The translations under genes were made by a program, and so were the position numbers. Positions 1 to 62,795 of a DNA stretch of 64,000 nt are shown piece after piece. The notes beneath the pieces are model-generated. The model saw only the letters and a program-made list of their open reading frames with translations. It was not told the origin of the DNA and ran no database searches. Source of the stretch: an uncultured Actinomycetota bacterium (lineage in GTDB: Bacteria > Actinomycetota > Aquicultoria > JACQXZ01 > CAYGBL01). The stretch's first letter is position 1, and the number at the start of each line of letters is the position of its first letter. Location: assembly GCA_964348135.1 (NCBI GenBank), contig CAYGBL010000010.1:5656-69655 (forward strand), given 5' to 3'.

Positions 1-453
1 GATTGCCTCGTTAAAACAACCGGGAACCTTGCGGAAATCCTCATGGGACTCAGCAGTTGAACCATCTAAGCTAACCGTTACTCTCTGAATACCGGCTTTC
101 TTGAGGCGCTCGGCTGTTTCTTCAGTAATATAAGTTCCATTTGTGCCAAGCACCATTCGCAGTCCTTGTTTGCTTCCATACCCGGCTATATCGTAGATAT
201 CCTGTCGAAGCATTGGTTCGCCCCCAGTTAGGATTATTACCGGGTTGCTGAAACTTATAATCTCATCAATAAGACTGTAAGCCTCCTCGGTAGTTAGTTC
301 TCGAGGATCGAGTTCATGAATGGCTGAAGCCCGGCAATGAACACAGTCCAAATTACAACTGTGGGTAAGTTCCCAGGCAATCATTCGCGGCGGCTGAGCT
401 ACGCCGGATGCAATCCTGTGCTTTTCCATGCTTACCTTAGTAATGTCGTGCAT
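1..453 (-). CDS. radical SAM protein, NirJ/AhbC/AhbD-like; N-terminal part only, gene runs off the window edge
   Basis: Manual translation from ATG 453 gives MHDITKVSMEKHRIASGVAQPPRMIAWELTHSCNLDCVHCRASAIHELDPRELTTEEAY..., with a CNLDCVHC (Cx3Cx2C) cluster motif. GGAG lies 7 nt upstream. It sits next to the hem genes. It is absent from the ORF track because it is truncated. Confidence 0.7.
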   Translation of the reverse strand, partial: MHDITKVSMEKHRIASGVAQPPRMIAWELTHSCNLDCVHCRASAIHELDPRELTTEEAYSLIDEIISFSNPVIILTGGEPMLRQDIYDIAGYGSKQGLRMVLGTNGTYITEETAERLKKAGIQRVTVSLDGSTAESHEDFRKVPGCFNEAI

Positions 454-477
454 TAAGACTCTCCATTGACAATATTA

Positions 478-599
478 AAAATCAAAAAGCAAATACCAAA
501 TATGAATATTGAAAACTTCCAAAAGAATCCACTTAGCGTTCTTATTTTTCAGTTTTTGATTTGTGTTTTTAATTTTTGCTTTTTGATATTTGATTTTAG
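478..599 (-). repeat. phased 7-nt degenerate tandem array (A/T-rich family A), flush with the hemB stop
   Basis: Read in 7-nt steps: aaaatca aaaagca aatacca aatatga atattga aaacttc caaaaga ... tttgatt tgtgttt ttaattt ttgcttt ttgatat ttgattt. The arms atcaaaaagcaaa (481-493) and tttgctttttgat (574-586) are complementary. Confidence 0.8.
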
Positions 600-1574: not shown

Positions 1575-1812
1575 ATTTTCTCCTTTCTTTCCAAGACACA
1601 AGACTCAAGTCGCAAGATACAAGTCACTGGAAGCATGAAACAAACCCCAAATATATCCTTAAGAACTATATGCCTTTTGTTCATTGTGTTTCACAGTCTT
1701 GTCCCACTACATGCAACCTGAGTCCTGCGACCTGTCTTGAGCCCACTGAACTGCATCTATATAATTAGATTGTACTATTTTAACAGCTTATAGTCCCGCT
1801 TTCCAAGACTTT

Positions 1813-5334: not shown

Positions 5335-5515
5335 TTATCTTGGAAGAGATAATCCCTCCAACTTCCCTTTAGGAAAGGTAATCCCTCCAACCTCCCTTTA
5401 GGAAAGGGAGGCTTTACATGTTTCCTCTTTTTTAAAGAGTTCTCTTTCTACCTCCCTTCTTTTATAAAGAGAATTCTTTAATTTCCCCTTTTTTTTAAGA
5501 GGGGTCGGGGGGAGA
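5335..5515. repeat. cluster of short A/T-looped palindromes, including a 29-nt direct duplication
   Basis: aatccctccaac(t/c)tccctttaggaaagg occurs twice (starts 5351 and 5380). It is followed by cctcttttttaaagag, ctcccttcttttataaagagaa and cccctttttttt aagagggg hairpins. Related motifs occur at 41985-42052. Confidence 0.75.
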
Positions 5516-6469: not shown

Positions 6470-6493
6470 TTTCCTCCCTGGTATTAACCTCAT

Positions 6494-6566
6494 AGCCTCA
6501 TGCCTCAGAGCCTCATGAAACTATTTGAGATTTGCGACTCTGCGGCTTCGCGGCTAGGGGCTGCAA
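6494..6566 (-). repeat. intercistronic repeat family D (hemA to hemC spacer)
   Basis: It shares the 14-mer agcctcatgcctca with 11150-11163. ctctgcggcttc matches ctctgtggcttc at 11201-11212 at 11 of 12 positions. Confidence 0.7.
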
Positions 6567-8681: not shown

Positions 8682-8725
8682 CTCAATAATGCATAATTGT
8701 TAATTGATAATTGTGAACTTACCTT

Positions 8726-11142: not shown

Positions 11143-11221
11143 AGTCTCAAAGCCTCATGCCTCAATGCACCAGAATATTCTGTAGCTTTGTAGCTTTGCG
11201 TCTCTGTGGCTTCTTTTATTC
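11143..11221 (-). repeat. intercistronic repeat family D (ccmA to ccmB spacer)
   Basis: It contains agcctcatgcctca (11150-11163, identical to 6494-6507) and the 8-nt units gtagcttt gtagcttt gcgtctct gtggcttc. Confidence 0.7.
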
Positions 11222-11933: not shown

Positions 11934-13943
11934 TCACGTTGCCTCTTGTTTCGCTTCCACTTCCTTTCTCACAGGTAAAAGGGCAATGATGCTTCCTAAC
12001 ACTACAATAAGGCTTCCTACCCAAACCCAGGATATAAGAGGATTTATAAAAGTGCTCATAACCAGTTTGTTATTTGAGTCCACTCCTTCAAAAATAACAA
12101 AAATGTCCCTAAAGAGTTCGTATCTTATGTCCACTTCCCGGGTTGACTGATTCTGCAACTGATAAAATACTACTCTTGGCTTAATAGTAGCTACATACTG
12201 TTGACCACCTCTTTTGTAGATATCAAAGATGGCGCCATAAAGTTCCCGATTGGGAGCAGAACCTACATCTACTCTGCGAAAACTTAAAGCAAGATCGCCA
12301 GCTTCGAAAAAGGATCCGGGTGCATTGTTTACACGATTTTTAACGTTGAGAACAAACATAGTAGAGCCTATTAGTCCTATTACTATTATGGCAACACCCA
12401 GATGCGTTAAAAACCCACCGCCCGTACCGGGGCTATAGCGAAAAATGTGGAGAAGCCCAGAGAAAAATCCGGCCTCCATTCTTTCTGCCCTCCGTCTTGC
12501 TGTGGTTATAATGAGCTGGATTACTGCGGCCAGAGAAAAGATGGCAATCAACCAGCCTATGTATCCCAGAACTGCAGGTCTTCTTGCAGAATCAGCGGCT
12601 TTAAGTACTAGTTCCTGATTTCGCCAGTAAAAAAAGAGAGGGACGGCTGCAATGACAGCAGCACCCGTGGGGATAGTTATTTTCTGCACAAGTTTGCCGG
12701 CTTCCGTCCTTCTCCAATTTAATAGAGGACAGAGAGTAAGGATAAGAATATAGACCAGACCTATTGGTGGAGCCAACCTATTATAGAACTCAGGACCCAT
12801 ACGTAGTCCTGTAAAGGAAGGTAATATAGTAGCAATAAGTACAATGGCTGCAGAGATAACCAGGATAAGATTACTCAGATAATAGGTAAACTCCCGGGAA
12901 AGGATTGACTCAAACCCCTCATCTGCTTCAAAGAGTTTGCGTCTGGAATAAAGAAGTCCAAATCCACCAAAGATTATAAGCGCCATAAAGAAGCCAAATA
13001 TACCGGTAAATACGAGATTTCTTTGAAAAGCGTGAACTGACTGGATTAGGCCCGAACGAGTAATGAAAGTTGCTACAATAGTGAGCCAGAAAGAGATAAT
13101 AGCTAGACCAATAGACCAGGATTTAAAACTTCCTCTATGCCGATATGCTGTGAAGGAATGCAGCAGAGCTGTCCCCGTAAGCCAGGGAAGAAGTGAAGCA
13201 TTCTCTACCGGATCCCAACCCCAGTATCCACCCCAGCCAAGAACAACGTAGGCCCAAAGAGCACCAAGAAAAATACCAATAGTCACAAATAACCACGCAA
13301 AGATAGTCCATCTCCGACAGAGATGAACCCAGGTAGCATCAGCCTTCTTCGCAAGAAGAGCTGCAATTGCATAGGCGAAAGGCACAGTCAAACCTGCATT
13401 ACCTAGAAAAACAGTGGGGGGATGAAGAATCATTGCCCAGTGAAGCAGCAAAGGATTTATACCTCTTCCTGCAGCTGCAAATGGTGGCGCTGCCTTAAAG
13501 GGATCAGCCGCCAAAACCAGAACGGCCAGGAAGAAAAATTGAACCGCATTTATCACAAGCAGTACATACGTGGACATTATATCCGGTTGTTTCTGCTTGC
13601 GGTAAGCTATAATCGCTGCTATAGTTGCAGTCATCCATAGCCAGAGGAGAAGCGACCCTTCATGACCTGCCCAGAAAGCAGATATACGATAAACAAGCGC
13701 CATATCGGCGCTTGAATGGTTAGCTACATATTCAAAGCTGAAATCTTTTGCAATAAAAGCTGCAAGGAGAACTGAACTCGACAGAGATATGGTTATAAAA
13801 AGCCAGATTAGACCCCAGTAGGAGTTTCGCAAATTGGCTTGTCTCTGCTTCCCTTGTGTACTCAGGGCATAGATCATAAAAACCAGGTAGAAGGCAGATA
13901 TTAGAGCAGAAACTACCAGGAACAGCTTACCCAGAATTATCAT
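11934..13943 (-). CDS. ccmF: cytochrome c-type biogenesis protein CcmF (heme lyase)
   Basis: A 669-aa polytopic protein with the WWD motif WGGYWGWDPVENAS. Confidence 0.92.
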   Translation of the reverse strand: MIILGKLFLVVSALISAFYLVFMIYALSTQGKQRQANLRNSYWGLIWLFITISLSSSVLLAAFIAKDFSFEYVANHSSADMALVYRISAFWAGHEGSLLLWLWMTATIAAIIAYRKQKQPDIMSTYVLLVINAVQFFFLAVLVLAADPFKAAPPFAAAGRGINPLLLHWAMILHPPTVFLGNAGLTVPFAYAIAALLAKKADATWVHLCRRWTIFAWLFVTIGIFLGALWAYVVLGWGGYWGWDPVENASLLPWLTGTALLHSFTAYRHRGSFKSWSIGLAIISFWLTIVATFITRSGLIQSVHAFQRNLVFTGIFGFFMALIIFGGFGLLYSRRKLFEADEGFESILSREFTYYLSNLILVISAAIVLIATILPSFTGLRMGPEFYNRLAPPIGLVYILILTLCPLLNWRRTEAGKLVQKITIPTGAAVIAAVPLFFYWRNQELVLKAADSARRPAVLGYIGWLIAIFSLAAVIQLIITTARRRAERMEAGFFSGLLHIFRYSPGTGGGFLTHLGVAIIVIGLIGSTMFVLNVKNRVNNAPGSFFEAGDLALSFRRVDVGSAPNRELYGAIFDIYKRGGQQYVATIKPRVVFYQLQNQSTREVDIRYELFRDIFVIFEGVDSNNKLVMSTFINPLISWVWVGSLIVVLGSIIALLPVRKEVEAKQEAT

Positions 13944-15938: not shown

Positions 15939-16541
15939 CTAACCTTTCATACGTACAACTCTTATTTCATCTCCCACTTTAACTCTTCCTCCCTTGAGCA
16001 CTTTTGCAAAGATCCCCTCACGCGGCATCACACAGTCACCAGCCTGATAGTATATAGCACACCGTGTGTGGCACTCCTTTCCTATCTGGCTCACTTCCAA
16101 AACCACATCATCACCAATAGTTATCGTTGTACCTATAGGGAGGCTGATAAGATCAACACCTTTTGTGGTTATATTCTCTGCAAAATCTCCCGGGCCTACC
16201 TTGAGCCCAAGTTTGCGCATCTTTTCTATACTCTCTTCCGCAAGCAAGCTTACTTGCCGGTGCCAATCTCCAGCATGAGCATCTCCTTCTAACCCCCTGT
16301 TCTCCAGAATGCTACAGTTGCCTACATTTCTCTTCCGTACGGTCTTTCGCTCACTTATATTTACAGAGATAACCACAGGGTTCGAGGTTCGAGGTTCAAG
16401 GTTCTTTTCATTTTCGACTTTAGACTGCCGACTGCCGACTGCCGACTGCTTACCTTTTGCCTTTAATCCGTGACCTGTGACGTGTGGTTTCTGTCTTTTG
16501 CCTTGAGCCTTGAGCTTTGAGCTTTGAGCGTTCTTTTTCAT
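15939..16541 (-). CDS. MOSC domain protein with a repeat-encoded K/Q/S-rich N-terminal tail
   Basis: The C-terminal ~145 aa is a MOSC fold (GLEGDAHAG...VSLL...[10 protein letters not shown]). ATG 16541 follows AAGGAGG with a 4-nt spacer and overlaps the moaC stop (ATGA). Confidence 0.85.
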
Positions 16542-17137
16542 TTGTCCTCCTTCCTCACAAACTCCCCGCTTTTACCTCCGCTTTTCTTTATTAACCTGAT
16601 ATCCGTGATAGTTATTCCCCTATCAACCGCTTTACACATATCATAAATGGTTAAACCAGCAACGGAAACAGCAGTCAAAGCTTCCATTTCAACACCAGTT
16701 GCTGCCTTGGTGCGGACAATTGCCTCAATTTCAATACTATTTTTTTGGTCATCTATATAAAAATTCATATCAATACGGGTAATAGGAAGGGGGTGACACA
16801 TAGGAATTAGATCCCATGTCTTTTTAGCAGCCATGATACCTGCAATTTGAGCTACAGCCAAGACATCTCCCTTTTTGACTTTTCCTTCCTTTATCAGTGC
16901 AAGAGTTTCTGCTTTCATAAACACCCTTGCTTTTGCAACCGCCTCCCGAAGTGTCTCTTTTTTCTCGCTCACATCAACCATTCTTGCTCTTCCCTGTTCC
17001 CCAAAGTGCGTCAACCCTCTTTCTTGTGGCTTGTCGCTTGAGTCTTGGGGTTTCCCTTCTTGACTGTCGACTCCCGACTGCCGACTGCCCACTTGCTTTC
17101 CGTCCTGACTCCTGACTCTTGACTCCTGACTATTCAT
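16538..17137 (-). CDS. moaC: cyclic pyranopterin monophosphate synthase with a repeat-encoded N-terminal tail
   Basis: The core [18 protein letters not shown]...MCHPL...[18 protein letters not shown] is typical MoaC. ATG 17137 follows GGAGG with a 5-nt spacer, 1 nt after the moaA stop. The track start at 17149 is a TTG. Confidence 0.88.
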
Positions 17138-17138
17138 C

Positions 17139-18116
17139 TCATCCTCCAATCTGGAACATTCCCCTTTTGAGCTTTATTGCAGCTAACGACTCCCGCTGCT
17201 TGGGTTTGCTAAGCAAAATATTTTTTATAAATTCCTTTATCTTCTCCTTGCGGGGATCCTCTCTAAGAAGTGCCCTCACATCTATTTCCTCTTCAGAGAA
17301 AAGACAAACTTTTAACTTACCATCAGCTGTTAAGCGCAGTCTATTACAGGAATCACAGAAATGCCGGCTGATGGGTGATATAAAACCGATTGTACCCAGC
17401 GCATCGCTCATATAGAAATATTTTGCCGGGCCAGCACCAATTGGGGGATCAGCAGGCTCCAGTTTTCCCAGTTTCTCTATCCTATCTTTCATCTCTTCAC
17501 AAGAAACAAAGGTTTTAGGATCAATTTCTTTATTAAAGGGCATGTGTTCAATAAACCTTATATGCACTGGAAACTCCCTAATTAAATCGGCAAATGGCTT
17601 GAAATCATCATTTATCCTTCTCAAAATAACTACATTAATCTTCACTGGATTGAAACCAACCGCTAGGGCCTTCTTTACTCCCTGCATAACTATTTTAAGA
17701 TCTCCGCAGCGGGTAAGATTCCTATAGACATCAAGGTCAAGTGAATCAATGCTAATGTTTACTCTCGTAAGTCCTGCCCGGGCAAGAGCTGAGGCATAGT
17801 TTTTCAACAAAATTCCATTTGTGGTAAGGGAAAGATCTCGTAAGCCCTGAATCCTGCATAGGCTCTTAACCAAGCCTACCACATCTTTACGTATCAGAGG
17901 TTCTCCTCCAGTAAGTCTTATACGAGAAATTCCTGTTTCTATTGCTGCCTCAGCAAAAAGAAGTATCTCTTCGTAAGTAAGTATCTCCTCGTGAGGTTTC
18001 CACTTTACACCTTGAGGAGGCATACAGTAGAGACAGCGTAGATTGCATCTATCAGTGATAGATATGCGCAAGTAATCTATTATGCGATTGTGTTTATCAA
18101 TAAGTTCAACCATCAT
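17139..18116 (-). CDS. moaA: GTP 3',8-cyclase (radical SAM)
   Basis: [20 protein letters not shown] cluster motif and the C-terminal second cluster [15 protein letters not shown]. Confidence 0.95.
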
Positions 18117-18175
18117 GTCTCCATTTCACCTGGCTACCTGGTCGCCCGGATTCCTGGAATCTAGCCCCAAAGGGG

Positions 18176-19399
18176 CTAATGATCTTCCTCCATCCCAATC
18201 ATCTGCACTTTTATTTTTTCTCCAGCTCTGATCAGAGTTGCCTCCTTAGGAACTAGCGCAAGACCGTTCGCCAGGATCATAGATTTCAAGATTCCCGAAC
18301 CCTGCGGCCCGGTTGCTTTGGTAAAGAAATTGCCGTCCTTTTGAAAAACGTGTACCCTCACCAGATGAAGTCTACCCGGTTTCTTCTTGATATCTTCCAC
18401 CAGAGTAGCTTCAACCTCTGGCCGGAAAAGGTAGCTCTTTCCCATCATCTTTAAAATTGATGGTCTCACAAACTGCTCGAAGGAAACCATCACTGCAACC
18501 GGATTACCTGGTAGCCCGAAAAGTGGTTTGCCTTGGATAAAGCCAAAAGCAAGGGGCTTACCCGGTTTCATAGCTACTTTCCAAAAATTCATCTCTCCAA
18601 CTTCAGTCAACACATCTTTGACCATATCGTAGTCCCCTACGGAAACACCGCCCGATGTAACAAAAATATCTATTTTGGAAACGTTTTCTAGTATCTTTTT
18701 CTTGAGTTCTTCCCGTTTATCCCTTACTATACCCAGAGACACAGGGGTGCTCTTACATTCCTTTACCAAAGCAACCAGGGAATAGCTGTTACTATCTCTG
18801 ATTTTCCCCGGGCCAACCTCCTCCTTGATATCGACCAGCTCATCACCGGTAGCGATTATACCGACTCTTGGCTTCCGCCTTACCTTCACACTGGGCTTTC
18901 CTAAACTGGCCAACATGCCAAATTCTGCTGCCCCAATACCTGAACCAGCTTTGATGACAAGTTCTCCCTCTTTTACATCCTCGCCAGCTTCGCGAATATT
19001 GTCCCCGGGGCGCGCTTCTTTAAATATATAGACTTTTCTCTCTTTTAATGAGGTATCTTCCACCGGCACTACAGCATCCGCATTTTTAGGAAGGGGTGCA
19101 CCAGTCATAATCTTTATGGTTGAACCAGGAGTTACGGCCTTAGTAGAAACATAGCCGGCAGGCAAATCTTCCATCACTTCAAGGATGGCAGGATTATCTT
19201 TGCTTGCTCCTTTAGTATCCTGGGATTGTAAAGCGAACCCATCCATTGCTGAATTATTAAATGGGGGAATGTCTGCATCAGAATAGACATCCTCTGCCAG
19301 AACCATCCCTAAAGAATCCAGGAGGGAAACGCTAATAACGTCAAGCGGTTTTATGGAATCAAGTATTCTTTTTCTTGCTTCCTCAAGATCAATCATCAA
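18176..19399 (-). CDS. moeA: molybdopterin molybdenumtransferase
   Basis: Typical MoeA sequence (NSAMDGFA, TGAPLP, SGGVSVGDYD, GLPGNPVA). Confidence 0.93.
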   Translation of the reverse strand: MMIDLEEARKRILDSIKPLDVISVSLLDSLGMVLAEDVYSDADIPPFNNSAMDGFALQSQDTKGASKDNPAILEVMEDLPAGYVSTKAVTPGSTIKIMTGAPLPKNADAVVPVEDTSLKERKVYIFKEARPGDNIREAGEDVKEGELVIKAGSGIGAAEFGMLASLGKPSVKVRRKPRVGIIATGDELVDIKEEVGPGKIRDSNSYSLVALVKECKSTPVSLGIVRDKREELKKKILENVSKIDIFVTSGGVSVGDYDMVKDVLTEVGEMNFWKVAMKPGKPLAFGFIQGKPLFGLPGNPVAVMVSFEQFVRPSILKMMGKSYLFRPEVEATLVEDIKKKPGRLHLVRVHVFQKDGNFFTKATGPQGSGILKSMILANGLALVPKEATLIRAGEKIKVQMIGMEEDH

Positions 19400-19469
19400 A
19401 TTCTCCTTACTCTTTAATAGTTACTTTCCCAGGTTATCGCCTTGCATCATAGCTTCTTTATGGCCAAAG

Positions 19470-19565
19470 CGTTCACCGTTCTCCGTTCAACGATTACTTC
19501 TCCTCACTCCTCACGCTTCACTTTCCACTTTTCACCCTTGACCCTTGTCACATAACTCATAACTC
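19470..19565 (-). repeat. phased, drifting 7-nt tandem array filling the tupC to moeA spacer
   Basis: Fourteen consecutive in-register units: cgttcac cgttctc cgttcaa cgattac ttctcct cactcct cacgctt cactttc cactttt caccctt gaccctt gtcacat aactcat aactctc. Confidence 0.85.
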
Positions 19566-20636
19566 TCACTTCCTAATCGCATGCACTGCTGAGGCTTTAA
19601 AAGCTGCTTTTACCACACTTCCAATCTTAAGATCCAGCTCTTCCTTTGACTGTTTAGTTATGTAAGAAACTAAAGGGAATCCGCAATCAAGGTCAACTTT
19701 AGTTAGAGCTCCCATATTTAGTAATCTAATGACTTTAGCCAGAAAATGATTACGCGCACTGGTATGATATTCCTCATCAGCTTCTTCTATTAAAACTTCT
19801 TCTGGCCTTATGCACACCAGTACTTTTTCGTTCTCCTTATATTCTCCTACTACTTCAACCTCATTTCCATACACTGCAATTCTTGTTAACCCACCCTGAC
19901 ACATCATCACTTCTCCTGGAAGTATCGTTTCTACACCTACAAAATTTGCCACCATCTCGCTCGCTGGATAGTTAAATACCTCAAAAGGAGAACCCTTTTG
20001 AAGAATTCTACCGTTATCCATTACCACAATACGATCTGCTACTATTAGTGCTTCCGTACGGTCATGAGTAACATATACAGTAGTCAGCCCCATCTTTTTT
20101 ATGAGCATAATCAGGTCTTCCCTAATGCTTTCTCTGGTAGGCGGATCGAGGAAAGTGAAAGGCTCATCCAGAAAAAGCACCTCCGGTTTGACAACTATGG
20201 CACGTGCTAAAGAGACTCTTTGAGCTTCACCCCCTGAAAGCTGCCAGGCAGGTTTAGCCGAAAGGTGTCCTATCTTCATTTGTTCAAGGATTGTACTTGC
20301 TCTCTCCTTAATTTCCTTTTCGGGAACTTTTCTTACTCTTAGACCATAGGCAACATTAGCAAAGACACTCTGATTAAAGAGCAAGGGGTCTTGAAAAACC
20401 ATTGCCATTTTCCGTCGCTCTGATAGCTCACTCCGTGAATCTCCAATTCTCCTACCTTCAAGATATATCTCTCCTCTATCCGGGCTTTCCAGTAGATTAA
20501 TAACTCTGAGCAGCGTGCTCTTCCCTGCTCCATTGGGCCCGATGATAGCTAGGATTTCTCCCGGCTCAACAATGAGCCGGTTTATATCCAGAACTCTTCT
20601 TTCCCCATAATGATGAAGGAGATTCTTTATCTCCAG
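19566..20636 (-). CDS. tupC: tungstate/molybdate-type ABC transporter ATPase with a C-terminal TOBE-like domain; non-canonical start
   Basis: The track ORF (from 20408) starts after the Walker A motif. The same frame stays open upstream and encodes LEIKNLLHHYGERRVLDINRLIVEPGEILAIIGPNGAGKSTLLRV... with no ATG, GTG or TTG. The likely start is CTG at 20636, or at 20651. Confidence 0.8.
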   Translation of the reverse strand: MEIKNLLHHYGERRVLDINRLIVEPGEILAIIGPNGAGKSTLLRVINLLESPDRGEIYLEGRRIGDSRSELSERRKMAMVFQDPLLFNQSVFANVAYGLRVRKVPEKEIKERASTILEQMKIGHLSAKPAWQLSGGEAQRVSLARAIVVKPEVLFLDEPFTFLDPPTRESIREDLIMLIKKMGLTTVYVTHDRTEALIVADRIVVMDNGRILQKGSPFEVFNYPASEMVANFVGVETILPGEVMMCQGGLTRIAVYGNEVEVVGEYKENEKVLVCIRPEEVLIEEADEEYHTSARNHFLAKVIRLLNMGALTKVDLDCGFPLVSYITKQSKEELDLKIGSVVKAAFKASAVHAIRK

Positions 20637-21346
20637 CCGCGGATATGCCAGGGTATCGCACCTCTCTGCTGACTCTGAGTCAAAACTAGATTAACCACAA
20701 AAGCCAGAACCAAAAGAATAAATCCTAAGGCAATGGCCATTTCAAATCGACCTATTCTCGTTTCCAGAACGGTTGCCGTAGTAAGAACACGCGTCTGCCC
20801 TTTAATGTTCCCCCCTACCATCATGACAGCCCCTACCTCAGAGATAACTCCCCCAAAACCTGCCATAATTGCTGCAAGCGTAGGGAGCTTTGCCTCTTTG
20901 AGTAAAGTCCAGACCATCTGCAAACGAGAAGCACCCAGGGAAAGGGCCTGCTGTCCGAGTCGCGGATCGAGCTGCTGAACAGCCGATAAAGTAAGTCCGG
21001 CTACAATAGGTTCTGCAATTATTACTTGAGCTATAATCATAGCTGCGGGAGTATAGAGCAGTTCCAAGAACCCTAAAGGTCCACTCCTCCAGAGGAATAG
21101 GGAGACAAAAAGACCGACTACAACCGGCGGCAGTCCCATAGCTGTATTGGTAAGTGCAATCAGGAAACGCCGCCCAGGAAAACGGGAAAGGGCAAGAAAT
21201 ATCCCCCAGGGAATTCCCAGAAGCAAAGAGATAAAAACTGCGCTTCCCGAAACCTTAAGAGAAAGCCAGGCTATTTCGTATACTTCGGGTTCTCCTCTCA
21301 AGATGAGCAGAACCGCCTGTTTAAGTCCTTGATATAAGAGCTCCAT
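20627..21346 (-). CDS. tupB: tungstate/molybdate-type ABC transporter permease
   Basis: Polytopic BPD-transport type permease located between the binding protein and the ATPase. Confidence 0.85.
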   Translation of the reverse strand: MELLYQGLKQAVLLILRGEPEVYEIAWLSLKVSGSAVFISLLLGIPWGIFLALSRFPGRRFLIALTNTAMGLPPVVVGLFVSLFLWRSGPLGFLELLYTPAAMIIAQVIIAEPIVAGLTLSAVQQLDPRLGQQALSLGASRLQMVWTLLKEAKLPTLAAIMAGFGGVISEVGAVMMVGGNIKGQTRVLTTATVLETRIGRFEMAIALGFILLVLAFVVNLVLTQSQQRGAIPWHIRGWR

Positions 21347-21365
21347 ATAAACCTCGTTATCGGCT

Positions 21366-21421
21366 ATTCGTTATTCGTTATTCGGAATTAGCAATTCGTA
21401 ATTAGTAATTCGTTCTTAGCT
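21366..21421 (-). repeat. phased 7-nt array, family C (tupA to tupB spacer)
   Basis: Units: attcgtt attcgtt attcgga attagca attcgta attagta attcgtt cttagct. Positions 21373-21412 are the exact reverse complement of 37289-37328 (40/40). Confidence 0.9.
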
Positions 21422-21445
21422 GACCTTTTCCTAATTTCTAGTTTC

Positions 21446-22315
21446 CTAATTCCCCTTCTTTGCATCCGGCACAAATAAAGGTTCACCGTGCTTGTCAATT
21501 CCAAATTCCCCTATCATCTCCTGAATCCTCGGTGAAGTCAGAAATTCTATAAAGGCTTCGGCACCCTTCGAGTTAATTTTTGGATACTTTTCTGGATTTA
21601 CTGCAATAACCGCATAGGGATTAAGGAGAAGGGAGTCCTTTTCCGCCAGAACTACTAATTCGATACGCTGGGAGGCAAGGAAAGTACCCCTATCTGCCAA
21701 TGTGTATCCTCTTTTTTCATTTGCTATCTTGACAGTCTCACCCATACCCTGTCCTGACTCAATATACCAGCTCCCACTGGGATTTATCTGAACACTCTCC
21801 CAAATCAGTTTCTCTTTTTTATGGGTTCCTGAATCATCACCTCTGGATATGAAGGTCGCTCCAGATGAGGCAATCTTTCTGAAGGCATCTCCAGCAGTAC
21901 TTCCTTTAATCTTTGCTGGATCATCTACTGGTCCAATTATAACAAAATCATTGTGCATAACCGGAATTCTCTTTACGCCAAAACCCTTTGCTACCAGTCC
22001 CTCCTCTGCCCTCTTAGAATGAACTAAAAGAATGTCTGCGTCACCACGCTCGCCCATTTTTAGCGCTTCACCCGTGCCAACAGCCACAACTTTTACCTGA
22101 GCTCCATTCTCTTTTTCAAAAATAGGTACGAGTTCATCAAGTAAACCGGTATCCTGCGTACTGGTTGTAGTCGCAAGCACCAGTCTTCCCACAGTTTCAC
22201 TCTTCTCTGCAGACTTACGTTCAGATTCTTTAGCAGCCTTCTGCTGACAACCGAAAGCAACCAACATTAGAATCGCTATTAAAACAACTACGAATTGCCT
22301 ATTGCTCACTTCCAT
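21446..22315 (-). CDS. tupA: tungstate ABC transporter substrate-binding lipoprotein (TupA-like)
   Basis: Lipobox VAFGC. The LVLATTTSTQDTGLLD (TTTS) motif is typical of the TupA family. Confidence 0.8.
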   Translation of the reverse strand: MEVSNRQFVVVLIAILMLVAFGCQQKAAKESERKSAEKSETVGRLVLATTTSTQDTGLLDELVPIFEKENGAQVKVVAVGTGEALKMGERGDADILLVHSKRAEEGLVAKGFGVKRIPVMHNDFVIIGPVDDPAKIKGSTAGDAFRKIASSGATFISRGDDSGTHKKEKLIWESVQINPSGSWYIESGQGMGETVKIANEKRGYTLADRGTFLASQRIELVVLAEKDSLLLNPYAVIAVNPEKYPKINSKGAEAFIEFLTSPRIQEMIGEFGIDKHGEPLFVPDAKKGN

Positions 22316-22367
22316 CTCCCTTCAAGTTATATCCGTTTTCCATTTCCGAGTAATAATATAAAAGTAA

Positions 22368-22393
22368 ACCCGCCTCCTGAAAGGTGGACGGGT
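22368..22393 (-). terminator. riboswitch expression-platform hairpin followed by a U-rich tract
   Basis: The minus strand reads ACCCGUCCACCUUUCAGGAGGCGGGU followed by UUACUUUUAU. It lies between the aptamer and the tupA start. Confidence 0.55.
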
Positions 22394-22428
22394 ATCCAAA
22401 AATATAATTCCTCTTTAGAATACACGTT

Positions 22429-22528
22429 CTCCTTTCCAAATACGGGAGGCACAATGGTTTCCCTTTGTACCCTATCGGCCATTCTCCTTACCCCGCCGAC
22501 GACGGAGTTTAGGAGACCTGGCTCGGAG
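22429..22528 (-). promoter_or_regulatory. Moco (molybdenum/tungsten cofactor) riboswitch aptamer upstream of tupA
   Basis: The minus strand reads CUCCGAGCC...GGCCGAUAGGG...GUGCCUCCCGUAUUUGGAAAGGAG. The 3' block matches the conserved GCCUCCCGUAUCUGGAAAGG of the E. coli moaA Moco motif as I recall it. A paralogous copy lies at 23501-23600. Confidence 0.8.
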
Positions 22529-22535
22529 AATCTAT

Positions 22536-22700
22536 CAGAAATCCAAATCCAAAACGAAAAAATCAAAATTACAAATCAAAATGAGAAACTTGTCACGAAA
22601 ATTCCTTGTCGTTAGCCCCAACAATTTAGTTCAAAATCCTAACACCATTTTGGATCTTCAATTGTCATTTTACATTTTGAACTTTGCAGTTTGAATTTAT
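22536..22700 (-). repeat. A/T-rich family A element flush with the stop of the MobB-like gene
   Basis: It shares gaaatccaaa and aatcaaaatga with 60018-60040. Positions 22648-22693 match 60071-60116 at 37 of 46 positions by manual alignment. Confidence 0.75.
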
Positions 22701-23483: not shown

Positions 23484-23500
23484 GTTTACACCCTGTTTTT

Positions 23501-23600
23501 CTCCTTTCCAAATGCGGGAGGCGTAGACGTTTCCCTCTACACCCTATCGGCCATTTCCCTTACCCTGCTGTCAGCGTGGCTTAGGGAAAAAGGCTCGGAG
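23501..23600 (-). promoter_or_regulatory. Moco riboswitch aptamer, second copy, upstream of the MobB-like gene
   Basis: The minus strand reads CUCCGAGCCUUUUUCCCUAAGCC...GGCCGAUAGGGUGUAGAGGGAAACGUCUACGCCUCCCGCAUUUGGAAAGGAG, colinear with 22429-22528. Confidence 0.8.
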
Positions 23601-23910
23601 ACGTATAAGATTGTAACATTAATTACAATTCGACGTTACTTTTAATTCTCCTTCTTTATATAATAAATATTTTTAGATTTGAATCATAGCCCAATTCTAT
23701 GGGTTATTGCTCTTTTCAGCAATTCCGTATTGAGTTCTATGGCATTATAACTATTTTTTATATAATTTGTAACTCAAAATCTGAGAGCCTCTAAGTTGCA
23801 TTTAAAGAAATTGTGAAGGAAAAACGGAATTAAAGTGAATTTATCCACCTTCACATAAACCAACTAATACATGTGAATTAATATGGATAAGATGGATATG
23901 AAGTGGAGCC

Positions 23911-26017: not shown

Positions 26018-26046
26018 TTGCCTAAACGTGAAAATTCCTGTATATT
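26018..26046 (+). promoter_or_regulatory. candidate sigma70-type promoter for the 26104 operon
   Basis: TTGCCT, a 17-nt spacer, then TATATT, about 55 nt upstream of the ATG. Confidence 0.4.
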
Positions 26047-26103
26047 AATTATTACATTTTTACATAATAAGTATTAATATTGTTTATGTTTAAGGAGGGA
26101 ACT

Positions 26104-40935: not shown

Positions 40936-41901
40936 ATGTCAATTGGAAAAGAAATGCTCAGATATAAATGTCTAGGCGCGTTAATTGGTACCTTTGTAGG
41001 TGATGCTTTAGGTATGCCCTTTGAAGGATGGCACTTTAAGGCAATCGAACGAAGGTACGGAAAAATTAATAGAATGTATAATGCTCGTCTGGGAAAAGGA
41101 ACCTATACAGATGACACTCAAATGATGATAGCAGTGGCTGAATCTCTAGTTGAGAATAAGGGCTTCAATGGTAAAGATATGGCCAGTAAATTCTTATTGA
41201 ACTACGACCCACGACGCGGTTATGGGCAGGGAACTGTTCGTTCTCTTTCGCTGTTGAGATCTGGAGTTGACTGGCAGGAAGCAGGTAAACGTGTCTTTAA
41301 AGGAGGCTCTTTTGGAAACGGTTCTGCCATGCGGGTAGCACCAGTTGGAATCTTTTATGCGCAAAACACGATGAAACTCAAAGAGGTGGCTTACAAGAGC
41401 AGTCAAATCACCCATGCTCATAGTCTGGGTAAAGAGGGTGCAGCCCTACAAGCTTCAGCAGTGGCCGAGGCTTTCCTGCGTTCTCCACAGGATAAATTAC
41501 ATCCAGAGGACTTCCTGGCTAACCTTATACGCAAAATACCGAGAGAGGCAGTAATATTTCACCAGAAACTCAATATCATAGGACACCTTCTAAAGGAGAA
41601 ACCCTCGAAAGATGAGGTAGTAGAAAAACTGGGTATTGACAGCCGCGCTTTTCAATCCATACCCTCGGCTATTTATTGTTTTCTTGCCAACTCTGAAAGT
41701 TTCGAGGAATCATTAGTCTATGCCGTAGGTCTGGGGGGTGACGCAGACACCATAGGCGCGATGACTGGTGCAATTGCCGGCGCTTATCATAGTCTTAGCA
41801 ATATTCCTGTTCAATGGATTGATGAACTGGAGAACGACTATAAAGGTAAAGATTATGTTATGGAGCTTGGAAATAAAATTTTTGATTTAGTTTATAAATA
41901 A
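40936..41901 (+). CDS. ADP-ribosylglycohydrolase family protein
   Basis: GDALGMPFEG, YTDDTQM and GGDADTIGAMTGAIAGAY motifs. Confidence 0.88.
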   Translation: MSIGKEMLRYKCLGALIGTFVGDALGMPFEGWHFKAIERRYGKINRMYNARLGKGTYTDDTQMMIAVAESLVENKGFNGKDMASKFLLNYDPRRGYGQGTVRSLSLLRSGVDWQEAGKRVFKGGSFGNGSAMRVAPVGIFYAQNTMKLKEVAYKSSQITHAHSLGKEGAALQASAVAEAFLRSPQDKLHPEDFLANLIRKIPREAVIFHQKLNIIGHLLKEKPSKDEVVEKLGIDSRAFQSIPSAIYCFLANSESFEESLVYAVGLGGDADTIGAMTGAIAGAYHSLSNIPVQWIDELENDYKGKDYVMELGNKIFDLVYK

Positions 41902-42082
41902 GAATTAAAGGATTCGAGGGGTAATAGAGTCAAGGGTTCTAGTAAATGCTAAAAATTCTAAATCCCAAACACCAAATTGTAATAATCTCTTCTAATCCCT
42001 CTTTAAAAAAGAGGGGAACATATAAAACTTCCCTTTCCTAAAGGGAAGTGGGATGGGACACAGTGCAGGAAAGGCTCCTCTT

Positions 42083-42788: not shown

Positions 42789-42797
42789 ATATCAGCT

Positions 42798-42867
42798 ATT
42801 AGGAATTAGTTATTCGTAATTCGTTGTTAACATCTGTTCTTAATTTCTAATTTCTAATATCTAATAT
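42798..42867 (-). repeat. phased 7-nt array, family C-like (selB to selC spacer)
   Basis: Units: attagga attagtt attcgta attcgtt gttaaca tctgttc ttaattt ctaattt ctaatat ctaatat. Confidence 0.85.
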
Positions 42868-42871
42868 CCCA

Positions 42872-44888: not shown

Positions 44889-46343
44889 TCACTCTTGACT
44901 CCCGACTCCTGACTCATGACTTTCTATCTTCTCAAATCCCTCTACAACTTCACTATACTCTTCAGGAAGGATTGTGCGGGCATCTAAAAGTATCTTTTCT
45001 TCTTTTATGCGAACAATTATGGGTGGGACATTTTCCCGCAGTCTTTGCTCTACTTCTCCAACTGTACTAAATCTTGGTTCCAGCAACACCACATAGGTAG
45101 GTAATTCTGTTAGAGGAAGAGCCCCACCTCCAGCACGGCCTATTTCGTCTTTCACTTCCACTTTAAATTTGTCCGGAACTTTCGCCCTCAGCATATCTGC
45201 TAATTCTTCGGCCCTCTTCTTCAATTCCTCAAGCGGGATGGTTATCATTCTTAGAGTCGGGATGTTCTCAAACGATTTTTGTGGATCAAAGTAAGCCTTC
45301 AACGTTGCTTCGAGCGCTGCAATTGTAAATTTGTCAACTCTAATTGCACGAGCCAAGGGATGTTTCTTAAGCCTGGAAATATATCTGCTTTTACCAATTA
45401 TAATACCGGCCTGCGGCCCACCAAGAAGTTTGTCCCCGCTGAAAGTGATAACGTCCACTCCTGCTCTTAGCGCACCGGCAGCGGTAGGTTCTCCAGCCAA
45501 CTGCAAGGATGGTAAATCGGCTAAAACACCGCTGCCTAAATCATACATAACGGGAAGGTTAAACTCCCTTCCCAACTGAACCAGTTCTTCAATCATTGCT
45601 TCGTGGGTAAACCCTACAATCTTAAAGTTCGAAGCATGCACTTTTAAAAGCATCGCTGTATTTTCATTAATGGCAGCCCGGTAGTCCGAGACATAGGTTT
45701 TATTTGTAGTTCCCACCTCCTGTAAAACAGCTCCACTCTCTCTCATAACATCAGGGATGCGGAAGGAACCGCCTATCTCCACTAGTTCGCCGCGGGATAC
45801 AATAACTTCTCTTTCTTTAGCAAAGGTACAAAGAGTCAGCAAAACTGCAGAGGCATTGTTGTTAACCACCATACCATCTTCTGCTTTAGTAAGAGTCCTA
45901 ATTAGCTCAGTTAGATGGTCGTGCCGAGATCCTCTCTCACCTTTATCCAGGTCAAACTCAAGGTTGGAGTAATGACTGGCCACCTCTACCAGGCCCCTCA
46001 CCGCTTCTTGAGAGAGGATTGAGCGGCCTAGATTGGTATGGATAACAACGCCGGTAGCATTTATCACTCTGCGTAAACTGGGAGAAACGATGTCTTCTAC
46101 TTTCCTCTGTACCTGCGGAACCATTGCCTCCGAGCTCAAATCCAATTGTAAGAGCTTACTCTCATCCTCCGTGGTAAGAATACGTTCCCTAAGATCATCT
46201 ATAACAAAGCGGGTTGCATCAACGACTACATCACGCGGATACAGTTCCATCATAAGTTGAATTTCTGAAAGCTTCAGTACCTCATCGACTGCTGATAGCC
46301 TGCGTAGATATTCTTTTTTGTTTAAATTCAATTCACCGTTCAT
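44889..46343 (-). CDS. selA: L-seryl-tRNA(Sec) selenium transferase
   Basis: RRVINATGVVIHTNLGRS and the PLP-Lys region FSGDKLLGGPQAG. The last ~11 codons (ESHESGVGSQE) are encoded by a gactcct-type 7-nt array. Confidence 0.95.
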   Translation of the reverse strand: MNGELNLNKKEYLRRLSAVDEVLKLSEIQLMMELYPRDVVVDATRFVIDDLRERILTTEDESKLLQLDLSSEAMVPQVQRKVEDIVSPSLRRVINATGVVIHTNLGRSILSQEAVRGLVEVASHYSNLEFDLDKGERGSRHDHLTELIRTLTKAEDGMVVNNNASAVLLTLCTFAKEREVIVSRGELVEIGGSFRIPDVMRESGAVLQEVGTTNKTYVSDYRAAINENTAMLLKVHASNFKIVGFTHEAMIEELVQLGREFNLPVMYDLGSGVLADLPSLQLAGEPTAAGALRAGVDVITFSGDKLLGGPQAGIIIGKSRYISRLKKHPLARAIRVDKFTIAALEATLKAYFDPQKSFENIPTLRMITIPLEELKKRAEELADMLRAKVPDKFKVEVKDEIGRAGGGALPLTELPTYVVLLEPRFSTVGEVEQRLRENVPPIIVRIKEEKILLDARTILPEEYSEVVEGFEKIESHESGVGSQE

Positions 46344-46667
46344 AATTTTACGTTCTCCGTTCGCAGTCCACCGTTCACCGTTTAAAAATCAGCCATCATC
46401 TATAAAGTTTTTGCAGGCGCTTCATTCTTGAGCTTCAGTCTTCAATTTTTTCAGGCTGACCGAGAATGTTAAAATTTATATTTCGAGCCCGCCTGCCGTC
46501 GCCTGCGGCTCAGCCAATGGCGGGCAGGCAAGGTCGATAACATAAATTTTGTGTTAAATACGGTAGTTCTCGATTCGCTTCGCTCACTCGAACAATAAAA
46601 TTTCTTCTTAATCTGTACAGTCGCCTGTTTACACTTGACTCCTGACTTATGACCTATGACCTTTGAT

Positions 46668-53329: not shown

Positions 53330-53409
53330 TCTGGCAGATTTAGCTTGGCGGTAAATGTCTAATGACGAATTTTAAAAGTTTAGGACATTGGTCATTAATC
53401 ATTACAAGC

Positions 53410-55380: not shown

Positions 55381-56523
55381 ATGATGAGGCTTAATTATTC
55401 ATCTATATCAACATACCAAACATGTCCACTTCAATATAAATTGCAATATATCGAAAAAATACCACGCAAACCGTCCTATGCTCTTAGCTTTGGAGATAGT
55501 CTCCACAAGACTATTGAATACTTCTATAGTGTCCCCTACCCAAAACCTTATAGTCTTGAGCAGATTCTTGATCATTTAAAGAAAGTGTGGCGATCCGACG
55601 GATACGCCAGCCGAAGCGAAGAAGAAGCTCATTTCAATCATGCTTTGCAGGTGCTTACTATTTTCTATCAGAGCAACTTAACAGATTTTCAACTCCCGGT
55701 AGCTATTGAATATCGCTTTGAGTTAAAAATTGATAATCTTACTTTAACTGGCAAAATTGATAAAATGGATAAACTTAAAAGCGGCGGTTTCGAAATAACC
55801 GATTTCAAAACTAATCGGCGCCTTCCACCCCTGCAAAAGATCAGGGCAGATCTCCAACTTTCAATATACCACCTGGCTGCTCAGCATATTTGGGGAGTAG
55901 AACCCGAAAAGCTCACACACTACTTTCTCCTACCCAATCAAAAAGTAAGTACTACAAGATCACAAGAGCAAATTGAGGAAACCCTAAATATTATTAGATC
56001 TATAGCTGAGGATATAACAGCCGAGATATTTAATCCACACGAAAATAACCTTTGTCCCTGGTGCGACTACCAATGCTATTGTCCTTTATACCGTCACCAG
56101 TATATAAGAGAAGAAGAGGCTACGACAGCAGAAGCTGAGACTGAATACATTGAGAAGATAATCGATGAATATGTAGAATTGAAAAAGCAGGATAGAGAAC
56201 TGAGCCAGAGAATCTCCGAACTACAGGAACGTATCCACAAATATTGTGAAGAAAACAATCTATCACGTCTATATAGTAACCGGGCGATGATTTCGCGTAC
56301 CACACGAGAAAAATACACTTATGATTTGAATCGATTGCGAGAGATTCTCGAACCTCTCCATTTATGGGAAAAAGTAATCAAAGTAGACAGTAAATCTCTA
56401 AAGGAAATGGTAGAAAAAGAGAATTTCACCGAAGAGATCAAGAGGGCTATCGAAACGTCAAGGCAGGTTGAAGAAATATCTTATGCATTATATTTAAGAG
56501 AACTTCAAACCAGCAACACTTAA
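55381..56523 (+). CDS. PD-(D/E)XK nuclease with a Cas4/AddB-like Cys cluster and a C-terminal coiled-coil extension
   Basis: N-terminal YQTCPLQYKLQYI, core GKIDKMD...FEITDFKT, and Cys triad CPWCDYQCYCP. A ~130-aa charged helical tail follows. Confidence 0.8.
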   Translation: MMRLNYSSISTYQTCPLQYKLQYIEKIPRKPSYALSFGDSLHKTIEYFYSVPYPKPYSLEQILDHLKKVWRSDGYASRSEEEAHFNHALQVLTIFYQSNLTDFQLPVAIEYRFELKIDNLTLTGKIDKMDKLKSGGFEITDFKTNRRLPPLQKIRADLQLSIYHLAAQHIWGVEPEKLTHYFLLPNQKVSTTRSQEQIEETLNIIRSIAEDITAEIFNPHENNLCPWCDYQCYCPLYRHQYIREEEATTAEAETEYIEKIIDEYVELKKQDRELSQRISELQERIHKYCEENNLSRLYSNRAMISRTTREKYTYDLNRLREILEPLHLWEKVIKVDSKSLKEMVEKENFTEEIKRAIETSRQVEEISYALYLRELQTSNT

Positions 56524-62366: not shown

Positions 62367-62795
62367 TTATCCTTTAGCTTTACGAATAATCCGTATAAAT
62401 TCAGCAGGTCTTACTACTTCTAATCTTGCCACCTTTCCCAACTTCAACATATGCACATCATTAGTAACAATATAATCAGCATTAGCTGTAATAGCACAAT
62501 CCATAAACTTGTTGTCTTCTCTATCTTCCTTAATAAGCATATGTTTTCTTGCTTTGCTTACTTTCTTGCCTTGCCTAAAGATATCATTTATCTTTTCCTT
62601 ATATTTCTCGGATGCACCAATATTTCTAAGAATAAGTCCAGCTTCCTTAAGTATGCTTCCCGTATATAGAACTTTAAAATTGGCTTTGCTAAGACAGAGT
62701 TTAATTATTGCAGCCGAAGCACTCCTGGGATTGAAATAGCCAGCTACCAGAAGGTTAGTATCCAGAACTATTCTAATAATCTTTCTCTTTGTCAA
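62367..62795 (-). CDS. PIN-domain protein (putative toxin, TIGR00305-like)
   Basis: The N-terminal IVLDTNLLV and downstream acidic residues (EDREDNKFMDCA, TNDVH) fit a PIN fold. Confidence 0.75.
   Translation of the reverse strand: MTKRKIIRIVLDTNLLVAGYFNPRSASAAIIKLCLSKANFKVLYTGSILKEAGLILRNIGASEKYKEKINDIFRQGKKVSKARKHMLIKEDREDNKFMDCAITANADYIVTNDVHMLKLGKVARLEVVRPAEFIRIIRKAKG

Follow-up and report, generated by a model that had tools for sequence, protein, structure and literature searches.

Here we describe a 64,000-nt stretch of DNA (the window) from an uncultured Actinomycetota bacterium (GenBank assembly GCA_964348135.1, contig CAYGBL010000010.1), in which the spacer between tupC, encoding an ABC ATPase, and moeA, encoding molybdopterin molybdotransferase, contains a degenerate tandem array of 7-base repeats at 19470–19567. 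We consider it likely that this array, to which a preliminary description of the sequence had drawn attention, is a heptanucleotide simple sequence repeat (SSR) array resembling the short tandemly repeated repetitive (STRR) elements of cyanobacteria, that it lies in the transcribed, untranslated spacer following tupC, and that it is a linker born of slippage. The target is one of about twenty such arrays in the window, and the best-supported account of them is slipped-strand expansion, combined with concerted evolution, at gene termini and in transcribed spacers.

Read on the plus strand, 19470–19567 splits into 14 in-register heptamers identical to those listed in the preliminary description. 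Identity at a lag of 7 nt is 0.659 (60 of 91 positions), against 0.21–0.29 at lags 1–6 and 8, and falls to 0.51 at lag 14 and 0.48 at lag 21; likeness fades with the distance between units, and the claim that neighbours resemble each other while the consensus drifts along the array holds. Adjacent units share 6, 5, 4, 1, 5, 5, 4, 6, 5, 6, 4, 4 and 5 of their 7 bases (these identities, and the base composition and reading frames given below, were counted by hand from the sequence). Because units 4 and 5 have a single base in common, the target consists of two abutting sub-arrays; Tandem Repeats Finder (TRF) reports it as three pieces. On the sense (minus) strand it runs TGA GAGTTAT GAGTTAT GTGACAA GGGTCAA ... 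GGAGAAC GGTGAAC G, its first triplet being the tupC stop codon. GTGAACG-type units lie upstream of both moeA and selA (the selA copy at 46351–46382). The parts of the spacer are as follows.

19470–19567, minus strand: the 14-unit degenerate heptamer array (lag-7 scan, unit split)
19498–19567, minus strand: 10-unit sub-array adjoining the tupC stop codon
19470–19497, minus strand: 4-unit sub-array of the GTGAACG family in the sense orientation, CGTTCAC family on the plus strand (TRF, lag-7 scan)
19397–19469, minus strand: non-repetitive rest of the tupC–moeA spacer (73 nt), with the moeA Shine–Dalgarno (SD) sequence AAGGAG

The array had been said to make up the whole tupC–moeA spacer; it occupies 96 of the 169 nt (57%) from the tupC stop (TGA, 19566–19568) to the moeA ATG (19396), the other 73 nt being non-repetitive. 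The mRNA strand of the array is C-poor and 74% purine (40% G, 35% A, 18% U and 7% C) and folds no better than shuffled sequences (z score −0.58). Rfam 15 matched no array either at gathering thresholds or at E ≤ 1 over 16300–22700, the Rfam matches in the window being molybdenum-cofactor (Moco) riboswitches and tRNAs only, and a promoter and terminator scan predicted none in the tupC–moeA spacer. The unit order has no second copy and no inverted arm in the window. In the transcript the array would form a C-poor, purine-rich, unstructured linker that parts the termination of tupC from an independent moeA ribosome-binding site. Translation of the array, whether into a peptide of repeats or into extra residues at the C terminus of TupC, might be suspected from the sister arrays that lie within open reading frames (ORFs) at the MoaC, MOSC, SelA and ThiE termini. 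The target, however, opens with the tupC stop and has TGA or TAA in all three frames of the sense strand within the first 65 nt, which refutes this reading for canonical decoding and leaves it practically no probability.

We compared maximal lag-k segments (score ≥ 10) with dinucleotide-preserving shuffles at window scale. The window holds 19 such segments at lag 7, covering 743 nt, against 0.2 in the shuffles and 0–1 at each of lags 2–6 and 8–12. Period 7 accounts for 21 of the 48 TRF rows, and the pooled intergenic DNA of the window peaks at lags 7, 14 and 21, whereas its coding DNA has no peak. The periodicity foreseen over shuffled controls, and in intergenic over coding DNA, is thus in strong excess at this scale, and the same architecture was recovered by TRF and the lag-7 scan at all 13 of the other heptamer loci for which it had been proposed. 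An 8-nt version proposed at 18126–18157 did not survive: TRF does not list it, and the site is an ordinary conserved spacer common to a related contig (L164, below). Period-8 tandem repeats, few and short (TRF 32–44), are found near or at gene boundaries at 6488–6516, 11146–11198 and 26043–26065, and are far rarer in the window than the period-7 arrays.

These counts also bear on whether the periodicity is a chance or compositional artefact of a pyrimidine-rich stretch, the plus strand of the target being 74% pyrimidine. The match of 0.66 is peculiar to lags 7, 14 and 21, the 19 segments stand against 0.2, and the orthologous array in a related lineage (L411, below) has the same register; lag profile, shuffles and ortholog together refute chance and composition for the target, and we attach next to no weight to this explanation. 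As the preliminary description had held, the array is not a clustered regularly interspaced short palindromic repeat (CRISPR) locus: its units are 7 nt long and contiguous, and there are no 23–50-nt repeats with unique spacers of similar length in the window.

The arrays are placed and oriented in a regular manner. Twelve of the 13 loci lie between co-oriented genes, and the stops of tupC, tupA, thiE, selB, selA and tusA/dsrE lie inside or beside arrays, so that the earlier remark that arrays often run flush to stop or start codons is borne out at tupC, TusA/DsrE and others. The related statement that arrays sit in gaps of co-oriented genes is supported overall but does not extend to 17062–17131 and 16379–16532, which are inside the MoaC and MOSC ORFs; nor are arrays spacers only, given that the selA and thiE ORFs end inside them. 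All 11 AGTCRGG dimers, found at four loci, are on the sense strand (chance expectation 0.76), and by our reading eight of nine unidirectional arrays are purine-rich on the sense strand. In several arrays SD-like GAGGAG or AGGAG motifs come back at 7-nt intervals. Besides the target, the arrays discussed here are the following.

471–597, minus strand: A-rich and complementary T-rich array, hairpin downstream of hemB (z −1.9)
1592–1627, minus strand: array just upstream of hemB, the sole pyrimidine-rich exception on the hemB sense strand
8686–8713, minus strand: four-unit array in the gap between a ccsA-like gene and sirC (TRF, lag-7 scan)
16379–16532, minus strand: N-terminal extension of the MOSC-domain ORF (ATG at 16541), containing three arrays
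17062–17131, minus strand: (AGTCRGG)n / (GGCAGTC)n arrays inside the MoaC frame, a 24-aa N-terminal tail insert (ATG at 17137)
21354–21445, minus strand: composite (AAATTAG)n + (ACGAATT/ACTAATT)n element in the tupA–tupB spacer
22545–22694, minus strand: A-rich/T-rich heptamer-like arms separating the 243-aa ORF from the second Moco riboswitch, with AAAATGTAAAATGACAAT common to L164
37236–37358, plus strand: copy of the composite element in the thiE–thiC spacer, with the thiE stop TAG inside a unit
42790–42868, minus strand: third copy of the composite element in the selB to tRNA-Sec spacer, with a weak AU hairpin
44891–44921, minus strand: (AGTCRGG)n array encoding the last 10 selA codons, SHESGVGSQE*
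46351–46382, minus strand: (GAACGGT)n array with which the first selA codons downstream, ATGAACGGTGAAT, are in phase
46628–46666, minus strand: array directly adjoining the TusA/DsrE stop codon
60017–60120, minus strand: paired A-rich/T-rich arrays in a convergent gap, past a radical-SAM stop codon

Our comparisons cover this one 64-kb window and a few short contigs of relatives. Near-identical contigs (99.7–100%) were assembled from pooled metagenomes of marine sediment in the Gulfs of the Kathiawar Peninsula, and the same operon is present in five related metagenome lineages, whose MoeA, TupC or MoaC proteins are 71–83% identical to those of the window.

L411/L410: TupC 82%, MoaC 83%
L164–L166: MoeA 79%
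L412: TupC 80%
L163: MoeA 76%
L408, L409: related lineage, short contigs

Heptamer arrays occur in the tup–moe–moa operon of all the related lineages and fill its spacers in L163, L164, L411/L410 and L412, while three unrelated 21-kb loci gave one weak period-7 TRF row apiece. Their recurrence in the same operon of relatives and their scarcity in unrelated loci mark the arrays, as far as sequence comparison goes, as a trait of the lineage. The host is not cyanobacterial, as the preliminary description had supposed from its genes: the best relatives among GTDB species representatives, reaching at most 58% for MoeA and 63% for ThiC, are in anaerobic Actinomycetota, Bacillota and Chloroflexota, and a gene content that includes selA, selB and selD along with tRNA-Sec, genes for tungstate uptake, Rex and Ccm system I, and a radical-SAM gene of NirJ/Ahb-like type fits an anaerobe. 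Exact searches with the 3′ half of the tRNA-Ala gave no match.

The origin of the arrays is most readily traced where they enter reading frames. Arrays at the MoaC and MOSC termini lie in ORFs and are predicted to be translated. The moaC ATG at 17137 has GGAGG ahead of it and overlaps the moaA stop, and the frame that it opens passes through the arrays and reaches the conserved MoaC N terminus; gene callers chose the array-containing start on four contigs, and L163 has no alternative in-frame start upstream of the conserved N-terminal motif. NCBIfam profiles begin only at residue 40–49 of the MoaC and MOSC ORFs. Contigs L409 and L408 encode the same MoaC N-terminal tails without arrays (MNGQEEKPQDSSGKPQE... 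and MESQEKPTQKPQE...): after the moaC ATG their DNA holds a single GGTCAAGAG or AGTCAGGAG. At the same point there is a 72-nt (AGTCRGG)n insert in the window and a 159-nt one in L163, with conserved flanks, and each insert has a length divisible by 3 but not by 7. The selA start continues its upstream array in phase. The moaC pairs with and without arrays, and the phase at selA, therefore indicate local tandem expansion from a resident seed; the moaC arrays would have grown from a single AGTCAGGAG seed, which fits slipped-strand expansion.

The MOSC extension is likewise array-built and in frame in the window, L410, L163 and L408, and the tails of the window and L410 differ by SSKLKAQ, that is, by 21 nt or exactly three units. 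The in-frame inserts and this 21-nt step therefore speak for selection on frame where an array is translated. It is true, as had been argued, that codon structure cannot give rise to a 7-nt period; the arrays are translatable all the same, with changes limited to whole codons. Inside ORFs only such whole-codon changes would survive and yield low-complexity peptide tails, the 21-nt step being the cleanest case. The MoaC and MOSC ORFs are separate (15939–17137), each matching one half of the fused MoaC/MOSC family NF011069, and their junction consists of a stop, a strong SD sequence, an ATG and the array-built tail.

At the target itself, the nine stop-proximal units align without gaps and in the same register to positions 4972–5036 of L411, the nearest relative (about 72% identity over 65 nt), with the order of unit variants kept. 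The 'drift' along these units is therefore inherited, not recent. Position 5 of the unit differs in parallel in at least six units, where the window has G or T and L411 has C, and such parallel changes may reflect concerted evolution between units. L412 has only three units (AGCAGAG) after the tupC stop, and the tupC–moeA spacers of L163 and L164 contain unrelated unit families set as inverted arm pairs that form strong hairpins (z −2.7 and −5.3). The length of this spacer is 160–187 nt in the window, L163 and L164 despite the unrelated sequences. Judged by these contents, the tupC–moeA spacer stays array-rich across lineages while its sequence turns over; between relatives the location of arrays is conserved, and their length and sequence vary.

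A rival account makes the arrays selected cis-acting RNA elements, either periodic platforms for RNA-binding proteins of the S1, CsrA or cold-shock type or ribosome standby sites, that would tune how strongly the cistrons of an operon are expressed relative to one another, or how stable they are. The sense-strand bias and the SD-like GAGGAG/AGGAG motifs at 7-nt spacing are in keeping with this view, as are the retained register and roughly 72% identity of the target with L411 and the similar spacer lengths just described. Arrays also abut stops and reach SD sequences: the last unit of the tupA–tupB array, AACGAGG, supplies the tupB SD in the window and in L164, and the composite element at tupA–tupB remains conserved across the window, L164 and L411. 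For comparable repeats, the literature proposes an effect on the stability of transcripts or on the coupling of translation (PMC2670836, PMC4679880). However, unit sequence differs at the same spacer, with other families and hairpins in L163 and L164 and three units in L412; the moaA–moaC junction is array-free in several close relatives; and a single genome has many unit families, with no significant structure and no Rfam family. We therefore regard selected RNA elements as unlikely, although not negligibly so. A bolder proposal makes the arrays a functional post-transcriptional layer of the lineage, consisting of strand-specific platforms or hairpins that a dedicated RNA-binding protein or nuclease would read to set cistron stoichiometry, with units perhaps spread horizontally (cyanobacteria, Bacteroidota, Planctomycetota and others) and in-frame copies co-opted as disordered tails. 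This we hold to be distinctly unlikely.

The composite element calls for separate treatment. It is about 90 nt long and recurs at three spacers in the same transcriptional orientation (76–84% identity over 68–80 nt), and its halves are mutually reverse-complementary, although the AT-rich hairpins they form are weak (z +1.0 to −2.0). In addition, a roughly 25-nt sequence, GCCTGCCCTGAGCGNAGNCGAAGGG, lies within arrays at different genes in L163 (about 12470–12500) and L408 (about 1408–1435), and we take it to resemble the small dispersed repeats (SDRs) reported inside cyanobacterial heptamer arrays. Both features, and contig ends that fall inside arrays, would suit an origin from miniature mobile or dispersed elements inserting at gene boundaries, of the miniature inverted-repeat transposable element (MITE), repetitive extragenic palindromic (REP) or SDR-like kinds. 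The unit order of the target nevertheless occurs just once in the window, and the target lacks both an inverted arm and any structure; neither terminal inverted repeats nor target duplications nor a transposase/REP-associated tyrosine transposase (RAYT) gene turned up, in work that included no dedicated test for them; and the presence/absence pairs show growth of a resident seed and not insertion of foreign DNA. We consider a mobile origin improbable. REP elements lack 7-nt periodicity and are RAYT-associated. The likeness of the arrays to REP elements and bacterial interspersed mosaic elements of enterobacteria is one of working and is limited to the paired arrays, which share with them intercistronic hairpins near stops and dispersed copies; as a REP- or MITE-like palindrome the target does not qualify (z −0.58, no second copy), and the AT-rich composite qualifies in part.

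Several breaks in short-read assemblies fall in or beside arrays. One end of contig L287 lies inside the tupA–tupB array, and L411 and L410 break just past the tupC–moeA array; the sites of contig breaks or deletion are the L287 ends (window 17011 and 21402), the L411 end with the L410 start, and L162 9951.

Tandem heptamers in intergenic DNA have been described in other bacteria. The closest counterpart is the set of intergenic heptamer SSRs known from Xanthomonas (unit GGGAATC) and from Nostoc/Anabaena (unit GGGGA(C/T)T) and reported by Rehm et al. 2015 (PMC4692102), about 90% of which are intergenic, mostly between same-direction ORFs and 0–50 bp from the upstream stop, sometimes as inverted pairs; their genomic place is conserved while length and sequence vary between related species, and one lies inside an operon (pecE–pecF). 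According to Mrazek 2007, as cited in PMC4679880 and PMC4692102, heptamers are the most over-represented long SSRs in many bacteria, and polymerase slippage was proposed. The window arrays agree with the Xanthomonas and Nostoc SSRs in having 7-nt tandem units, mainly intergenic between co-oriented ORFs and near the upstream stop, and the properties of heptameric or long SSRs, namely a tandem excess over chance, a co-oriented intergenic position near a stop, and a conserved place with varying sequence, are all found here. They differ in that their units are not G-quadruplex formers, many families coexist and the arrays are far more degenerate; sense-strand bias is also stronger in the window, Xanthomonas using both strands about equally (PMC4692102).

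The preliminary description had named STRR sequences as the precedent, rightly, although the Xanthomonas and Nostoc heptamer SSRs just described (PMC4692102) are closer still. STRR hairpins occur between hupS and hupL, and roles in transcript stability or translational coupling have been suggested for them (PMC2670836). Like cyanobacterial STRRs, the arrays are heptanucleotide tandem arrays of several families in transcribed spacers with hairpin potential, and at window scale they too come in many families and many copies. STRR sequences of heterocystous cyanobacteria were reportedly described by Mazel et al. in 1990. The canonical units do not form arrays here: STRR1 (CCCCAGT) and STRR3 (CAACAGT) have no match in the window, and STRR2 (TTGGTCA) has two matches (a weak 3-unit stretch at 53381–53401). 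This stretch, in a convergent gap, reads TAGGACA TTGGTCA TTAATCA, its middle unit being STRR2; the match is at about chance level. The host, moreover, is non-cyanobacterial, and the window arrays are degenerate and in some cases in reading frames, whereas the cyanobacterial array that we inspected, an AGTCAGG-type intergenic array of eight copies in Anabaena cylindrica, is perfect. The unit AGTCAGG itself forms perfect arrays in Anabaena and many other cyanobacteria. Exact (AGTCRGG)3 is present at more than 120 genome loci among the matches listed, many of them in filamentous cyanobacteria, and among the same matches also in Bacteroidota, Planctomycetota, Acidobacteriota, Verrucomicrobiota, Chloroflexales and Lysobacteraceae. 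A metagenome scan with the ACGAATT-type pattern gave, among the matches listed, hits in very diverse samples, which for so short and AT-rich a pattern are by our estimate partly due to chance and serve as illustration only.

A third system, the TAACTGA direct repeats present in marine Beggiatoaceae and in some cyanobacteria and Bacteroidetes, is suspected of a post-transcriptional role (MacGregor 2015, PMC4679880). It resembles the window arrays as a set of intergenic heptamer direct repeats with patchy phylogeny, often a few nt upstream of start codons. The TAACTGA system is built on a single unit with two stop codons in 2–6 copies, in contrast to the many families, mostly after stops, of the window. 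TAACTGA forms no tandems in the window, where a scan gave one 2-mismatch match, at chance level. The window arrays are thus a new host lineage's more degenerate, multi-family version of a known kind, and not a new kind.

Taken together, these observations lead us to favour slippage with concerted evolution. Slipped-strand mispairing or tandem duplication would turn a local 7–9-nt seed into head-to-tail copies, an origin seen in the sister arrays and extended by us to the target. Units would then diverge by point mutation and be partly re-homogenised, giving neighbour-similar, drifting units, and arrays would persist where a 7-nt step is harmless, in spacers and at gene ends. Pairs of arrays of opposite polarity would form intercistronic hairpins, as in the hairpin-type arrays of relatives' spacers (z −2.7 to −5.3), with an expected effect on transcript stability or translational coupling. 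Both the linker role and the hairpin role may follow from these features.

Several points weigh against slippage with concerted evolution. Slippage itself was not observed directly, and no copy-number change was found between three near-identical assemblies (99.7–100%) in the arrays compared. In one low-quality assembly 68 nt are missing within the thiE–thiC array, which fuses thiE to the array (222 versus 213 aa); because the same assembly has frameshifted genes, this deletion may be an artefact and we do not trust it. A neutral process does not obviously predict the sense-strand bias (11 of 11 AGTCRGG dimers, eight of nine arrays purine-rich) or a register kept across species for nine units, so selection or a transcription-linked bias may act as well. 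The dispersed copies of the composite element (76–84% over 68–80 nt at three loci) need copying or conversion beyond local slippage. Finally, the evidence comes from one window and a few short contigs.

The target belongs to a minus-strand operon that opens with a promoter-like site; next come the first of two Moco/tungsten riboswitches with a terminator after it, an ORF of 243 aa, the other riboswitch and tupA, tupB and tupC, and then moeA, moaA, moaC, the MOSC-domain gene and mog.

23485–23612 and 22413–22540, minus strand: two Moco/tungsten riboswitch aptamers heading the operon (Rfam)
19566–20651, minus strand: tupC, a wtpC-like ABC ATPase gene, full length only from CTG at 20651
18176–19396, minus strand: moeA, molybdopterin molybdotransferase

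The two aptamers, in tandem, are 77% identical over 103 nt; a terminator-like hairpin (23484–23461) follows the first, and the second stands directly before tupA. In tupC there is no ATG, GTG or TTG ahead of the Walker A region, and where L164 tupC has its TTG start the alignment shows CTG in the window (20649–20651) and in L163, with GAGAGGTG upstream. From this CTG, TupC has 361 aa and is matched by the WtpC profile end to end. The tupC start is probably non-canonical, which accounts for the truncated 280-aa product given by gene callers. Downstream, the moeA–moaA spacer (18117–18175; L164 8676–8737) is conserved, with a hairpin AGCCCC-TTT-GGGGCT right after the moeA stop whose loop is TTT in the window and AAA in L164; in L163 the same spacer comprises 311 nt of nested heptamer-array hairpins (z −4.0).

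Elsewhere in the window, the 324-nt gap between TusA/DsrE and selA has heptamer arrays at both ends and a GC-rich imperfect palindrome, GCCCGCCTGCC...GGCGGGCAGGC (about 46485–46535), that is identical in three assemblies. A separate dispersed repeat, a 29-nt tandem unit with an inverted copy (5340–5436 and 42003–42056, 80–89% complementary), contains the palindrome CTTCCCTTTCCTAAAGGGAAG and is situated in the hemD–hemC gap and downstream of the gene at 40936–41901. A NirJ/Ahb-type radical-SAM gene (1–459, minus strand) starts right after the hemB hairpin arrays; with sirC, cobA–hemD, hemA, hemB and hemC it suggests siroheme-dependent (alternative) heme synthesis. At 55381–56523 and 62367–63907 there are a PD-(D/E)XK nuclease with DUF7376 and a Mu Gam/TOTE-type domain, which is conflict-system-like, and, separately, a PIN-domain gene beside a GNAT acetyltransferase-domain gene.

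The record of tandem heptamers goes back to 1990 in cyanobacteria and to 2007–2015 in other bacteria. For annotation, the arrays matter in that callers place truncated starts, contigs break at arrays and some apparent 'spacers' are coding. What this lineage adds is a dense comparative set, one riboswitch-controlled operon traceable in at least five related lineages, within which arrays appear from a single seed, keep a nine-unit register, change in parallel or turn over completely. In this operon, both the model of slippage and concerted evolution and selection on orientation and position are directly testable.

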